The notes beneath the pieces are model-generated. The model was not told the origin of the DNA, did no database searches, and saw only the letters and a program-made list of their open reading frames with translations. Shown one piece after another: positions 22,945 through 27,715 of a stretch of DNA of 64,000 bases. The DNA comes from Escherichia phage RB32: the sequence record NC_008515.1. One strand, 5' to 3'. A program made the position numbers and the translations under genes. The first letter of the stretch is position 1, and each line of letters begins with the position of its first letter.

Positions 22945-22962
22945 GGGGACCTTTCGGTCCCC
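22945..22962. terminator. Hairpin GGGGACC-TTTC-GGTCCCC after gene 54, followed by a T-rich tract on +
   Basis: Perfect 7-bp stem; same motif family as the gene 23 and 24 terminators. Confidence 0.6.
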
Positions 22963-22968
22963 ATATTT

Positions 22969-23259
22969 TTATTTACGGAATGAAATGAAAGCAGCAACTG
23001 AAGCAACTAAACTGTCTTCAATATAAACTTCAATTTTTACCGGAGCTTCTGACTCGAATTTACCTGTTACTACACCCTGAAAAATACTTTCAGTCTGTTC
23101 TGGCTTTGAAAAATTTTCAGAAGGAAAAATTCCGAACTTTTTATCTGTTCCAAAAATTTTAATAAATTCATCGTAAACTGCTTCATTAAAAGCATTATCA
23201 GCAGGAATAACGCCTTCAACTACAAGTTCTTGACCTAAAAAGCGTAAAGAAGATTTCAT
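22969..23259 (-). CDS. Hypothetical protein (position of T4 alt.-3)
   Basis: 96 aa ORF; ATG 7 nt downstream of a GAGGA SD inside the repeated early-promoter cassette. Confidence 0.65.
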   Translation of the reverse strand: MKSSLRFLGQELVVEGVIPADNAFNEAVYDEFIKIFGTDKKFGIFPSENFSKPEQTESIFQGVVTGKFESEAPVKIEVYIEDSLVASVAAFISFRK

Positions 23260-23266
23260 TTTGTGT

Positions 23267-23320
23267 TCCTCATGTTATGTCAGTAAGACTACTATAACAC
23301 AACACGAGGGACTTGTAAAC
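23267..23320 (-). promoter_or_regulatory. Early promoter cassette (-35 GTTTAC, TGn-TATAGT -10, 5'UTR, GAGGA SD); copy 1 of a 54-bp perfect repeat
   Basis: Read on - strand: GTTTACAAGTCCCTCGTGTTGTGTTATAGTAGTCTTACTGACATAACATGAGGA; identical to 38633-38686. Confidence 0.6.
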
Positions 23321-25377
23321 TACATTTTGAACTTTTTAGACATTCCGTTGATGTTAACCAAAGAAGCTAAGATTTGAGAAACTTCATTTTCCTCTTCTTT
23401 TGATTCTTCTACAAGGAATTGATTAAATCCAGTCATTGGACGAACTTCACCAGTTTCCATTAGATGGTCGCCATCATATACTGATTCCTCTAATTGTTCA
23501 GAAGGAGGAACGATTGTACCTTCGATTAGATACTTGTTATAAGCAGTTTCTTTCATAAAGTACGTACTTACTTTATTAATCTTCAGTAAAATTCCACGCG
23601 GTAGAATAACTTCAGCTTCTGATGGAAATCCTGATAAATGACCTGGAACGATAACTTTGATTCGCTCAGCTCCTTTAATTACCATACCCACGCTAGTTTC
23701 AGCATCTTCATTGGCATATGTAGAATGACTACCCGTATGCATTAAATCTTCTGCATCAACGGAACCTTCTCCTTCACCAGAAAATACTGCGCCGGAATCA
23801 TCTAGAGCCATATAGTTTTTACCATGCTCACCGAAGATATTTGGTTTAAGCGATGTGGATACGAAGTTCTTGAAATAGAACATTTTATTTTCAATGTTAT
23901 GACGCAAAGTTTTAAAGGTAACTTCTTGTCCACGATAAAGCGTAGTTCCTGGAGGAAGAACCGAACCTTTAGCGAATGCAGAATCCAACGTCTCGATGTG
24001 CTTAATGGCACGTTCCATATATTCTTCACGGGTAGAATCTGGTTTACCCAAAAGGAACGAGTTCATTTCAACATATGAATCTGCACAATAATCTTCAATT
24101 ACATCAGATTCAGCTTGAGTTAATCCTTTTGGAGTTACTTCGGTGCTTGCGTATTCATATGCCTGAGCGGCAGATTCATTAATCAATTTATAAATGCCAT
24201 TCATTACAAATTGAATAATAGCTGTCTTTTCATCTGGCGTAGCTTTAGAACCTTTAACCAAATCATTGATAATTTTCTTAATAACATCAAAGCTATTAGA
24301 AATATTAATATCAGCAAGATCGCTTAAAATTTTATCAGTTTTATAATCAAAGAATTCTTTATTCTTTAAATATTCTTGAGAACCTTGATATGTTATATCG
24401 CTCTGCAACTTGATGGATGGATCACGTAAACGTGCATGGGCTAATGCAATATGATTTCGGAAGTTTTCTAGTTCATAATCGCTAGATTTAAAACGAGAAG
24501 CACTCCTCATACCACCGATAGCTCCTTTGCTGAAGTTTGAACCAATCTGAATAACGCCAGAGTTCATTGGTCCTTCTGCTTTATATACCGGAACTTTAGA
24601 TTCAAACTCTTGATATTTCTTAGCAGCGAAGCTATCACCCTGAAGTGAAGCATCAACAGTAGAATATTGAGCTTGTGCTGCTAATCGACGACTAATTTTA
24701 GTTTTCTGAATAACAGCTTGGTCCGTGCGCTTATCATTTTCTAAAGCAATAGAAGCAGCAACAGCGACAGCTTTAGGAACAGCATTACCTGTTTTAACGT
24801 CTACATAAACATCACCAACCTTTGATTCAACTTTTGTGAATAACTCAGTTGAAATAGGAGGTACACCTGGAATGTCTTCTAAATTGGCATTTTTACGGTA
24901 AACCATAATATATGCATACTTTTTATCATAGTCCCAGATTTCCTTTAAAAGAACATATCGACCTGCTCCTTTAGTACGTACTAAACGGTCAGCAATAACT
25001 TGCATTTGACGAGCAGCGCCATTTGTTTTACTTTTTAGTACGCGGAATAGGCATGCGTCAATTTTATACTGCTTCATTGTTTGAAGAGCAGTATCAAAAA
25101 CAGCATTAATGACACCAATTGGATTTCCACCCAAGTTTCTAAGCTTAACCAGCGATAATTTCTCGTTGACACCTATCATTACGATATGCATCATTTTATC
25201 GCCTGGCTTAACGTTTTTATTCGTATCACCACCAGAGGTGTATGTACAAAATCTAAATCCAGGAAGCACGCTTTCTTCGCCGGCTTGAATAGCAAAAATT
25301 TGTGGTATTTTATGCTTAGGATTTAAGTTAACAACCGGCGCCGAAGCGCCGTCAAATAATTCTGTAATAAGTTCCAT
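23320..25377 (-). CDS. Alt-like ADP-ribosyltransferase paralogue (capsid-packaged internal protein type)
   Basis: 685 aa; N-terminal ~230 aa closely similar to Alt; C-terminal region keeps R (YRG), STS and EAE catalytic motifs; N-terminal MELITE suits gp21 processing. Confidence 0.85.
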   Translation of the reverse strand: MELITELFDGASAPVVNLNPKHKIPQIFAIQAGEESVLPGFRFCTYTSGGDTNKNVKPGDKMMHIVMIGVNEKLSLVKLRNLGGNPIGVINAVFDTALQTMKQYKIDACLFRVLKSKTNGAARQMQVIADRLVRTKGAGRYVLLKEIWDYDKKYAYIMVYRKNANLEDIPGVPPISTELFTKVESKVGDVYVDVKTGNAVPKAVAVAASIALENDKRTDQAVIQKTKISRRLAAQAQYSTVDASLQGDSFAAKKYQEFESKVPVYKAEGPMNSGVIQIGSNFSKGAIGGMRSASRFKSSDYELENFRNHIALAHARLRDPSIKLQSDITYQGSQEYLKNKEFFDYKTDKILSDLADINISNSFDVIKKIINDLVKGSKATPDEKTAIIQFVMNGIYKLINESAAQAYEYASTEVTPKGLTQAESDVIEDYCADSYVEMNSFLLGKPDSTREEYMERAIKHIETLDSAFAKGSVLPPGTTLYRGQEVTFKTLRHNIENKMFYFKNFVSTSLKPNIFGEHGKNYMALDDSGAVFSGEGEGSVDAEDLMHTGSHSTYANEDAETSVGMVIKGAERIKVIVPGHLSGFPSEAEVILPRGILLKINKVSTYFMKETAYNKYLIEGTIVPPSEQLEESVYDGDHLMETGEVRPMTGFNQFLVEESKEEENEVSQILASLVNINGMSKKFKM

Positions 25378-25380
25378 GAT

Positions 25381-27477
25381 TTATCCTTGAACGAACTTGT
25401 AAGGCATGTTTGTAATATCTATGCAAGACGCAATAATTCCAAGAGATGATTCTACTTTCTGTTTAACATTTGATGAAACAAATGATGCAAAGTCAACTCT
25501 GTCTTCTACTTCAATATCACCTGTCATTGCAACTACTTCGCCGGTTTCCATTAGACAGTCTCCGTCATAAATTACCGATTCGGTGAGTTCTTCTGTGGTC
25601 ATAACTTCAGCTTGAATGAGTTTTGTATTATTAGATGTTGTTCCGTCATTATTAGAAGCATCAGTTATTTTATTAACTTTGACCATCAACCCGCGCGGTA
25701 GAATAACTTCAGCTTCTGTTGCTATTCCGAGACTTCCTGGATATACAACATTAACTTTATGAGCTCCATCAATTGCCCATCCTATTTGAACTTTAACGTA
25801 TTCAGGATTTTCTTTATACGCTCTTATTTCGTTTGGATTAATAGTTATTCCTTCTTCATTTTTATCAACTGTTAATTCGTTACGAGCTTCTGGTTCTAAA
25901 AGACCAATACCAGCATGTGTAATTCCAAAACGTCCAAAAATGATAGGAGTTAAAGAAGTAGATACAAAATTTCTGAAATAGAACACTTTATTTTTAACTA
26001 GTGCTTCGTATATAGGAGCAGTCATACTTTGAGCACGATAAACTGTAATGCCTTCCGGTATGCGGTCACCATTTTCAAAAGCTGAATCTAAATTATTTAT
26101 AGCAGATTCAATTTCTTTTTCACTCATTACATCATATCGTTCTGGATTGTAACGACCTAAAAGAAGATTATTAATGTCTGTATATCCTGAACCACAATAC
26201 TCTCTAATACCGCGCTTTTGTGATGGAGTATATTTAGAACCATCACGGGCAATAGTAATATCAATCATTGGACCAGCACCAATTCCAGAAAAGCTATAAA
26301 TCATTCGTTTGAGGAATTTAGTTTTTGCTGCATTCCAGGCATTTTTAGTTATTTCTCCCCAGACTTCATCTGGTTGCCCTTTACGAGTTTTATTATGTTT
26401 ATCAAGCCAATTATCTTTATATTCTTCAAAGAATTTATTAACAGCTGCTGCGTATTTCTCTAAACATTTTATTGAAGTAGTTGGCTCATTTTTTATCGCG
26501 TTAAAAATTACATCTTTAATTTTTTCGGAAACTTCATCAACCTCACTTTTTGAAAAGAATTTATAGTCATAGTGAAGTTCATTCGCAGTTCCTTCGGCAA
26601 TAATTTTTGCTGCCTTAGTTTTAGAAGCTAATGAATTAATTCCAAGCTTCATTTCTTCTGCTTCGGGAATTAAAGGAGCGGTAGCAGGTTTATTGAAATT
26701 AGCTGCGGTAGATTCATACTTCTGGAATAATTCACTTTCAAACCTAGAAGATTCCAATGATTGACTTTGCGCAATTGCTCTACGGGAAATTTTAACTTTA
26801 ACGATTACAGCTTGGTCAGAACGTTTATCATTTTCTTGCGCAATAGATGCTGCAATTGCCTCATTTTTAGTTACTTGGGCTCCAGTATCTTTATTGATAT
26901 AAACATCACCGACCTTCGATTCAACTTTAGTAAAGAGCTCGGTACTAATTTCCGGAACTCCTGGAATGTCTTCTAGTGATACATTTTTGCGATGTATAAG
27001 AATATATGCATACTTTTTATCATAATCCCAGAGTTCCTTAAGAAGGACGTATCTACCACCTGAACGACTACGGATAAGTCTATCAGCAATAACTTGAATT
27101 TGTCGAGCTTGGCCAGCAGTTTTAGACTTAAGAATACGAAGCATACAAGCATCAATTTTATACTGACGCATCGTTTGCATTGCAACAGTAAAAACTGAAT
27201 TGATATAATTAATTGGGCTTGGACCAAGACCTTTTAATTTAGCAATTGAACCTTTAGCAGTTAATGTAAAAGGAACAATATGCATCATTTTATCGCCCAT
27301 TTTTAAATCGCGATTAGTATCACCTCCAGATGTATAGGTACATAAACGAAAGCCTGGTTGTTCAATTGCATCATCAACATGAACTGAAAAAATTTGCGGT
27401 ATTTTCTTCTTTGGATTTAAGTTTGTAATCGGAAGAGTAGTATCTTCGTCAAATAATTCTGTAATGAGTTCCATCAT
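25381..27477 (-). CDS. alt: Alt, RNA polymerase ADP-ribosyltransferase (injected internal head protein)
   Basis: 698 aa; N-terminus MELITELFDEDTTLPITNL recognised as T4 Alt; R-STS-EAE motifs present. Confidence 0.9.
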   Translation of the reverse strand: MMELITELFDEDTTLPITNLNPKKKIPQIFSVHVDDAIEQPGFRLCTYTSGGDTNRDLKMGDKMMHIVPFTLTAKGSIAKLKGLGPSPINYINSVFTVAMQTMRQYKIDACMLRILKSKTAGQARQIQVIADRLIRSRSGGRYVLLKELWDYDKKYAYILIHRKNVSLEDIPGVPEISTELFTKVESKVGDVYINKDTGAQVTKNEAIAASIAQENDKRSDQAVIVKVKISRRAIAQSQSLESSRFESELFQKYESTAANFNKPATAPLIPEAEEMKLGINSLASKTKAAKIIAEGTANELHYDYKFFSKSEVDEVSEKIKDVIFNAIKNEPTTSIKCLEKYAAAVNKFFEEYKDNWLDKHNKTRKGQPDEVWGEITKNAWNAAKTKFLKRMIYSFSGIGAGPMIDITIARDGSKYTPSQKRGIREYCGSGYTDINNLLLGRYNPERYDVMSEKEIESAINNLDSAFENGDRIPEGITVYRAQSMTAPIYEALVKNKVFYFRNFVSTSLTPIIFGRFGITHAGIGLLEPEARNELTVDKNEEGITINPNEIRAYKENPEYVKVQIGWAIDGAHKVNVVYPGSLGIATEAEVILPRGLMVKVNKITDASNNDGTTSNNTKLIQAEVMTTEELTESVIYDGDCLMETGEVVAMTGDIEVEDRVDFASFVSSNVKQKVESSLGIIASCIDITNMPYKFVQG

Positions 27478-27497: not shown

Positions 27498-27505
27498 TAT
27501 TTATA
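27498..27505 (-). promoter_or_regulatory. Late promoter TATAAATA (- strand) upstream of alt
   Basis: TATTTATA on + strand (TATAAATA on -) about 20 nt upstream of the alt ATG; fits late packaging of Alt. Confidence 0.5.
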
Positions 27506-27526
27506 AAATTAAAGGCCCGAAGGCCT

Positions 27527-27715
27527 TTAATAATCTATTGGTAAGAGAGTACGATATATTTCAAACTTTGGACCTTTTTCATAGGCATCAAATGTTTCTG
27601 TGAATTTATTATAAGCATATGCATCTATAAATTCAATCATGATTTGTGATACAGAAGTAGAAACATCTCCACCTTCTTTTTGAGCCACGACAATTGTTTC
27701 TAAGTAAGCTTTCAT
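27527..27715 (-). CDS. Hypothetical small protein between gene 30 and alt
   Basis: 62 aa; ATGA start/stop overlap with the gene 30 stop. Confidence 0.55.
   Translation of the reverse strand: MKAYLETIVVAQKEGGDVSTSVSQIMIEFIDAYAYNKFTETFDAYEKGPKFEIYRTLLPIDY

Follow-up and report, generated by a model that had tools for sequence, protein, structure and literature searches.

Two tandem Alt-type ADP-ribosyltransferase genes, and an apparently modular alt locus, in T4-type bacteriophages

The alt locus was analysed in a window of 64,000 nucleotides (nt) from Escherichia phage RB32 (NC_008515.1); "the window" means this whole stretch of DNA. The region is 100% identical to Enterobacteria phage RB33 (KM607001), genus Tequatrovirus, and RB33 is the name used below for the genes of the window. 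Alt, an ADP-ribosyltransferase (ART), is the textbook case of a phage enzyme that enters the cell together with the phage DNA and reprograms the host before phage gene expression, and what is known of it comes almost entirely from T4. The window carries two intact Alt-like genes in tandem, alt and alt.-2, whose products are called Alt and Alt2 here. They probably constitute a late operon of two genes, encoding two paralogous virion-borne ARTs which share a delivery module and have different or partly overlapping targets. We regard this account as a whole as probable, if far from assured, the packaging of Alt2 and the divergence of targets being its weakest links.

Results and Discussion

Organization of the alt locus

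The listing of open reading frames (ORFs) gives two minus-strand ORFs, 25381..27477 (698 amino acids, aa) and 23320..25377 (685 aa). The original prediction had placed two Alt-like genes head to tail with a 3-nt gap, and this arrangement was found: both ORFs are intact, and the stop codon of alt (TAA, 25383..25381) is followed by ATC and then by the ATG of alt.-2 at 25377. Of the two predicted sizes, 685 aa stands and 698 aa probably needs a minor correction. In alt, 2 nt separate the GAGG core of the Shine-Dalgarno sequence from the first ATG and 5 nt from the second, and both the GenBank record and T4 begin Alt at MELITE. Because of this spacing and these starts, the second ATG (27474) is the more likely start of alt, which gives a protein of 697 aa.

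The pair is flanked by gene 30/alt.1 on one side and alt.-3/gene 54 on the other and runs antisense to the baseplate genes, which is the position of the T4 Alt family. The neighbourhood is as in T4, with genes 29, 48 and 54 on the plus strand and alt.-3, the two alt genes, alt.1, DNA ligase (gene 30) and 30.1 onward on the minus strand. The principal features are as follows.

25381..27474, minus strand: alt (copy 1), orthologue of T4 alt, 697 aa; GenBank RB33_196, 'adenosylribosyl-transferase'; an extra upstream ATG extends the listed ORF to 27477
23320..25377, minus strand: alt.-2 (copy 2, Alt2), full-length Alt paralogue, 685 aa; GenBank RB33_195, noted as alt.-2
26770..27474, minus strand: N-terminal module of Alt, aa 1-235, including MELITE, with I-T-E at residues 4-6
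24673..25377, minus strand: N-terminal module of Alt2, aa 1-235, the proposed capsid-delivery module, 67% identical to that of Alt
25594..26343, minus strand: ART catalytic domain of Alt (R480 = 26035..26037; S505 = 25960..25962; E587 = 25714..25716; E589 = 25708..25710)
23518..24132, minus strand: ART catalytic domain of Alt2 (R482 = 23932..23934; S507 = 23857..23859; E587 = 23617..23619; E589 = 23611..23613)

Paralogy and conservation of the catalytic residues

Alt and Alt2 are 41% identical over their full length (BLASTP, E = 3e-158). The shared N-terminal region, predicted at about 230 aa, reaches 67% identity over aa 1-235, and the strong divergence predicted for the middle and catalytic regions was likewise seen: codons 241-440 are 12-23% identical, the core of the catalytic domain 40-50%, and the insert between S-T-S and E-x-E 10-23%, so that within the catalytic domain it is the loops that have diverged. 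Both proteins match PHROG 802 ('Alt-like RNA polymerase ADP-ribosyltransferase') from end to end (Alt, E = 1e-273; Alt2, E = 1.3e-256, residues 1-685), and both score well above the curated gathering score of PF03496, 23.4 bits, with 128.7 bits for Alt (E = 2.3e-37) and 72.0 bits for Alt2 (E = 5.6e-20). Against T4 Alt, Alt2 shows 41-42% identity in an alignment that covers 100% of Alt2 (E ~1e-138). A Pfam scan of the two window proteins matched PF03496 and did not match PF26846, the Tevenvirinae_ADPRT N-module; PF26846 together with PF03496 is precomputed for close relatives, such as P0001 (98% identical), and from these relatives and the 67% module identity we count both proteins as having the architecture of an N-module followed by a C-terminal PF03496 domain. 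NCBIfam holds no model for Alt or Alt2.

The catalytic set consists of R480, S505-T-S507 and E587-A-E589 in Alt and of R482, S507-T-S509 and E587-A-E589 in Alt2. The surrounding motifs are YRAQ in Alt and YRGQ in Alt2, with FVSTSL and EAEVILPRG in both, and the predicted R, S-T-S and E-x-E motifs align in register. Among 16 diverse family members the columns of R482, S507, S509, E587 and E589 (Alt2 numbering), the following ILPRG and an upstream Y430...N439 motif are invariant. Repeating the search with a profile made from the alignment yielded the same 258 proteins and no extra diversity. Alignment with T4 Alt, ModA and ModB had been set beforehand as the test of the second copy; the catalytic columns of Alt2 fall on R478/S503/E574/E576 of T4 Alt, R72/E163/E165 of ModA and R73/E171/E173 of ModB, and both the catalytic Arg and the catalytic Glu are thus present in Alt2. 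Mutants Alt E577A and ModA E165A lose ADP-ribosylation (PMC11404850); we take the published Alt E577 to be E576 in RefSeq numbering, with an offset of one.

The alignment of copy 1 with CdtA and iota Ia extends over the regions of the catalytic Arg and of E-x-E. When Alt2 was compared with the PDB sequences by phmmer, no match was found at E <= 1, copy 1 alone having reached CdtA and iota toxin, and the fold of Alt2 was therefore compared by way of a model. The AF2 model of Alt2 (mean pLDDT 76.6) matched the ART fold in Foldseek at E = 9e-9. Alt and Alt2 are true paralogues of T4 alt.

The N-terminal module and putative gp21 cleavage

In T4, about 40 copies of gpAlt are present in the prohead core, and gp21 trims a small N-terminal peptide from it (PMC9958956). 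Once injected along with the DNA, gpAlt ADP-ribosylates RNA polymerase as well as other proteins of the host (PMC9958956; PMC5512222). The original prediction held that MELITE fits the (L/I)-x-E cleavage rule of gp21, and at the level of the motif it does, with I-T-E at residues 4-6 of both RB33 proteins. All 16 aligned members have Glu6, and either L or I at residue 4.

The N-module makes up a narrow family, with 69 cluster representatives among 1.84 billion proteins. Barring about a dozen short fragments, its carriers measure 460-790 aa and nearly all begin with the module, and an ART domain stands behind it in 8 of the 10 most distant or shortest members scanned. In the searches run it was unrelated to MuF.

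Both proteins would be incorporated into the prohead core by way of this shared module of about 235 aa. There gp21 would cut each after Glu6 of its (L/I)-x-E, leaving Alt2 with an N-terminal peptide that starts at Leu7 (LFDGASAPVVNLNPK), and both would then be injected with the DNA and act on host proteins in the first seconds of infection.

Another motif of this kind, YDGDxLMETGE, is found near the C-terminus, at aa 634-644 of Alt2 (23395..23427, minus strand) and aa 636-646 of Alt. It is mostly invariant, with Y, D, G, D, E, G and the final E fixed in 16 of 16 family members, and its L-M-E (Alt2 residue 641) fits the gp21 (L/I)-x-E rule in most of them; a C-terminal cut there would remove 44-54 residues. 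The tail of Alt2 past this motif is of low confidence in the AF2 model (pLDDT < 50 for residues 646-674). Two distant proteins, P0214 (485 aa) and P0215 (541 aa), have an N-module-like start (23-27% identity) and no Pfam ART match. P0214 resembles a degenerate ART, with LYK for LYR and N-S-E for E-x-E; the body of P0215, in which no Alt-type motifs were seen, hints at a non-ART cargo.

Expression signals

The following elements bear on the expression of the pair; the first is a consensus match and the other two were read from the sequence.

27498..27505, minus strand: T4-type late-promoter motif TATAAATA, about 20 nt upstream of the alt start
27506..27528, minus strand: G+C-rich hairpin and T run (AAAGGCCTTCGGGCCTTTAATTTT), terminator-like, after alt.1 and directly preceding TATAAATA
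25384..25388, minus strand: Shine-Dalgarno sequence AAGGA of alt.-2, 6 nt before the ATG and abutting the alt stop codon

The terminator-like AAAGGCCTTCGGGCCTTTAATTTT may set the upstream early genes apart from alt. Near the alt/alt.-2 junction the stretches read showed neither a promoter-like nor a terminator-like sequence; the scan did not extend over the interior of alt, which holds a second TATAAATA. Because a late motif lies upstream and no promoter or terminator was seen at the junction, alt and alt.-2 read as one late transcription unit, from which both proteins would be made late. Such late transcription matches the timing needed for a protein that is built into proheads.

The window contains 19 matches to the TATAAATA-type motif when 8.9 would be expected by chance. 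The second exact copy inside alt (26094..26101, minus strand), about 720 nt upstream of the alt.-2 start, is possibly an internal late promoter for alt.-2 or else a chance match.

Predicted acceptor and targets

Both enzymes follow a plan of three parts: the N-module, a helical and highly variable middle (aa ~240-410), and a C3/VIP2-type R-S-E ART domain with a type-specific C-terminal tail. Among R-S-E ARTs an E-x-E motif goes with modification of arginine, and Q-x-E enzymes such as C3 modify asparagine. From the E-x-E motif, arginine is the predicted acceptor for both Alt and Alt2.

In related C3-like toxins the stretch between S-T-S and E-x-E includes a turn or loop for substrate recognition. 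The residues just before and at E-x-E read GSLGIATEAE in Alt and HLSGFPSEAE in Alt2. Given the divergence in the middle, in the insert after S-T-S and in the residues before E-x-E, different target sets are the most economical reading, and the host proteins modified by Alt and by Alt2 most likely form different sets, or sets that overlap only in part.

Selection on alt.-2

Pairs of alt.-2 among RB33, T2, T6, RB51, pSs-1 and IME339 differ at 19-95 synonymous and 1-16 non-synonymous positions, with a ratio of non-synonymous to synonymous rates (dN/dS) of 0.014-0.048. Among phages that share the same alt allele the dN/dS of alt is 0.02-0.08, and that of alt.-2 is equally low. Because of these values Alt2 is not a pseudogene. 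Shigella phage sb4 (PQ666542) was left out of the analysis, as its alt, alt.-2 and gene 48 are each fragmented into several ORFs; an error of sequencing or assembly is the most likely source of this fragmentation.

Recent gene conversion between alt and alt.-2 was considered and rejected. Synonymous divergence (dS) between the two genes is saturated along the whole length, the N-module included, so any homogenisation must be old.

Distribution of the two-gene state and the deletion in T4

In the survey of copy number in T-even genomes that had been proposed, a full-length alt.-2 orthologue of at least 90% identity is present in about 400 phage records (tblastn), including T2 and T6, and the 4.9-kb alt region is covered to at least 80% in 337 phage records, among them T2, T6 and RB27. 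RefSeq labels both genes 'Alt-like RNA polymerase ADP-ribosyltransferase', and the T6 record notes an 'apparent insertion in alt.-2; also similar to alt'. As had been supposed for T4, its annotation lists a single alt followed by the small ORFs alt.-1 (62 aa), alt.-2 (67 aa) and alt.-3.

Compared by blastn with alt.-2 of RB33, the T4 region is 95% identical through the first ~350 nt and then 97% identical over the last ~20 nt of the gene. T4 retains the first ~116 codons of alt.-2, split into its alt.-1 and alt.-2, together with the last ~6 codons. This break indicates an internal deletion of alt.-2, along with a break of frame:

~23340..25029, minus strand: segment of alt.-2 absent from T4, about 1.69 kb, from blastn of the T4 region against RB33

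T4 alt.-1 and alt.-2 (L001:5066-5451) thus correspond to the single gene alt.-2 of RB33, most of which T4 has deleted; a frame shift splits what is left. In the T4 RefSeq note they are 'an old duplication of the first part of gene alt', whereas our comparison shows the remnant of a full-length gene that was truncated later. The full-length Alt2 type is present in Dhakavirus as well. Of the 498 records matched by a 301-nt probe spanning the T4 junction, 91 contain it as one contiguous stretch, and in the others its halves are separated. Since the T4 junction is confined to this minority, the two-gene state is the common one in the T4-type group and T4 the derived one.

The tandem alt pair is already known as an annotated property of T-even phages that has been remarked on before, and it is not a discovery of this study. 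Nolan et al. (2006) listed T4 alt.-1/alt.-2, RB49ORF183c and 44RRORF188c as paralogous duplications of alt, the duplicate in phage 44RR being full-length (PMC1524935). A genome report of 2026 described two paralogous Alt-like proteins of 43.29% identity in phages 6phi13 and SHFML-11, and suggested functional divergence and a wider target range for this same gene pair (PMC13600099).

One record falls outside the expected hosts. In PV654520.1, 'Pseudomonas phage vB_PSGBLB0006' (142 kb), labelled a P. aeruginosa phage, DNA 98.7% identical to the Tequatrovirus alt.-2/alt.-3 region was found, which suggests a mislabelled host or a mixed assembly.

Modular evolution of the alt locus

The number of Alt-like genes at the locus varies between genera. 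Dhakavirus UGJNEcP3 (L013:861-7124) has three in tandem, of 695, 681 and 707 aa, with 3 nt between each pair by the annotated coordinates, and Moonvirus CF1 (L014:1872-6123) has two, the second of which is split into two ORFs.

The two parts of the proteins group these copies differently. Over residues 1-235 the three Dhakavirus copies are 67-90% identical to one another and RB33 Alt and Alt2 are 67% identical, and pairs from different genera are 42-45% identical whatever their type. From residue 236 to the end, RB33 Alt is 50% identical to Dhakavirus copy 1 (469 aa) and RB33 Alt2 51% identical to Dhakavirus copy 3 (479 aa), and RB33 Alt and Alt2 are 35% identical to each other over 284 aa. 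Neighbour-joining trees of 13 sequences were built separately for the N-module and the body, each with 200 bootstraps. The Tequatrovirus genome clade was recovered in 181/200 replicates of the N-module tree and 0/200 of the body tree, and the Dhakavirus genome clade in 200/200 and 0/200. The Alt-type clade across genera gave the reverse, 0/200 in the N-module tree and 200/200 in the body tree, as did the Alt2-type clade across genera (0/200 and 200/200). The two halves of the Alt proteins thus have discordant histories, the N-module following the genus and the body following the type.

Copy 1 itself occurs as at least two alleles (window 25381..26769 in RB33), one of the RB33/T2/T6 type and one of the T4/pSs-1 type. 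Between RB33 Alt and T4 Alt, identity is ~100% over the first 240 residues, falls to 15-65% along the body, depending on the segment (about 55% over the body as a whole), and is 88-95% in the tail; pSs-1 has the T4-type body beside an ordinary Alt2.

Three natural hybrids (P0003, P0005 and P0007) carry the N-terminus of Alt on the body of Alt2. They come from L009:5001-7055, L010:5001-7061 and L011:5001-7061 (Logan SRR24155011 and SRR19633722; ENA ERZ27282683), and their clean crossovers lie at about nt 545-560, 640-650 and 150-163. On the 65- and 110-kb contigs (L009 and L011) the hybrid is the sole alt gene between alt.1 and alt.-3; the third (L010) lies at the end of a 7-kb contig, and its downstream neighbour falls outside the contig. 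Genes of this form are what would be expected from unequal crossing-over between the tandem N-modules.

It was also considered that the hybrids are artefacts of assembly. This is disfavoured by the three distinct crossovers, the three independent samples and the two long contigs, with the limit that a check at the level of reads was not possible. RB33 alt and alt.-2 share no exact word of 26 nt or more, which makes a collapse by the assembler unlikely. Real recombination is the better reading of the hybrids.

The locus seems, then, to behave as an array of one to three effector cassettes, in which the enzyme bodies are old types common to several genera and the N-modules are alike within a genome; copies appear to be lost through recombination in the N-modules and through deletions. 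A broader proposal for the Tevenvirinae, to which we give slightly less than even chances, is suggested by the discordance of the trees, the existence of hybrids and the variation in copy number. The alt locus would be an array of cassettes for injected effectors, in which a genome-specific N-module addresses the cargo to the phage's own prohead and old ART bodies shared by horizontal transfer (at least Alt, Alt2 and a third Dhakavirus type) are stacked one to three times, swapped, fused through unequal crossing-over and deleted. Each body would have a host target of its own, possibly among defence proteins, and the set of bodies would be a determinant of host range or counter-defence.

Alternative explanations

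Several points weigh against the account of two injected enzymes with separate targets. Our search of the literature found no virion proteomics, enzymology or mutant phenotype for Alt2. For T4 Alt itself, the literature found documents cleavage and presence in the core, which falls short of establishing that the N-module serves in packaging. Substrate divergence is argued from the divergence of the sequences, and the alpha subunit of RNA polymerase could be the main target of both enzymes. In addition, the promoter call is a consensus match, and the second TATAAATA inside alt leaves the exact pattern of transcription uncertain.

Of the other explanations, the one that survives best, unlikely as we judge it, is that Alt2 is a redundant copy for dosage or back-up, packaged and active, with the targets of Alt (RNA polymerase alpha among them), its divergence being due to drift or to escape from a host inhibitor. 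Architecture, catalytic residues and operon are indeed all shared, and either body can be lost in nature, as seen from the T4-type deletion of alt.-2 in 91 records and from the at least two long contigs (L009 and L011) whose single hybrid lacks the Alt body. Against redundancy, the body types are distinct across genera in 200/200 replicates, each being about 35% identical to the other and about 50% to its counterpart in another genus, and about 400 genomes retain both genes under strong purifying selection, which is unexpected of a merely redundant copy.

Slightly less likely again is that Alt2 is an active ART which is not packaged and acts late, in the producing cell, on host or phage proteins. 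Its place in a late operon would suit such a role, as would the absence of virion data for Alt2 from the literature found. However, Alt2 keeps the whole N-module and the (L/I)-x-E at residues 4-6, as does the packaged Alt, and the hybrids join the Alt N-module directly to the Alt2 body; the T4 enzymes that do act in the cell, ModA and ModB, are of about 200 aa and have no N-module.

We consider it improbable that Alt2 is mainly a structural component of the prohead core with a vestigial or inactive enzyme domain: T4 Alt, too, has been called a protein of the core (PMC11404850; PMC9958956), but the catalytic residues of the family are invariant. The reading of Alt2 as a decaying duplicate, a pseudogene in the making, could appeal to the loss of most of alt.-2 from T4 and 90 other records and to the split copy of Moonvirus CF1, but it is refuted for RB33 by the selection analysis (dN/dS 0.014-0.048) and by the intact 685-aa ORF in about 400 records at 90% identity or more.

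Neighbouring features

Three further features follow downstream of the pair; the second and third were read from the sequence.

22969..23259, minus strand: alt.-3, 96 aa, DUF5498, identical to T4 Alt.-3; downstream neighbour and end of the alt locus
23291..23320, minus strand: early-promoter-like GTTTAC, 18 nt, TATAGT, overlapping the alt.-2 stop codon; it would serve alt.-3
22945..22962: hairpin GGGGACC-GAAA-GGTCCCC between alt.-3 and the convergent gene 54; it looks like a bidirectional terminator

Significance and comparison with known systems

T4, the source of most knowledge of Alt, is a minority genotype that has lost the second enzyme. Most of its T-even relatives, T2 and T6 included, probably inject two different ARTs, and some Dhakavirus phages may inject three. 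If so, immediate-early take-over of the host would be richer than the T4 model has it, and Alt2 would be an obvious candidate to explain why T-even phages differ in how they take over the host or in how sensitive they are to its defences. The gene content was known before; what is added here, and is of modest interest, is the modular behaviour of the locus.

Compared with T4 Alt, copy 1 of RB33 is the orthologue, its first 240 aa being ~100% and its C-terminal tail 88-95% identical, and it differs as a body allele (55% identity). Alt2 has the whole architecture of T4 Alt, likewise starts with MELITE, keeps the R/S-T-S/E-x-E residues and lies at the same locus on the same strand. Its body (aa 236 to the end), in contrast, is 30-37% identical to Alt bodies and belongs to a separate type found across genera.

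ModA and ModB belong to the same R-S-E ART clade as Alt2, with catalytic Arg, Ser and E-x-E in alignment. They are proteins of about 200 aa encoded in the srd-modA-modB-mrh cluster of T4, and lack the N-module, the middle region and the C-terminal tail; they are made early and are not packaged (PMC5512222). Alt2, with 685 aa, an N-module and a place at the alt locus, is not of the ModA/ModB type, and its identity to these enzymes is 19-21% over the catalytic domain only.

The bacterial C3-like, VIP2 and iota toxins (Vis, C3bot, CDTa and Certhrax) are 14-26% identical to Alt and Alt2, which differ from them by an insert of about 50-60 aa between S-T-S and E-x-E. These toxins are secreted, whereas Alt is delivered from the phage capsid, as Alt2 presumably is too.

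In its mode of working the alt locus resembles polymorphic toxins, polyvalent proteins and MuF-ART proteins, in which likewise the N-terminal part is conserved and matched to the carrier, and the effector behind it is variable and subject to exchange and recombination. Fusions of ARTs to MuF domains that are packaged in the head are on record (PMC9503650). The likeness is one of logic and not of family, and the cargo of the Alt N-module is, among the cases sampled, nearly always an ART of one family, as in 8 of the 10 distant members scanned.

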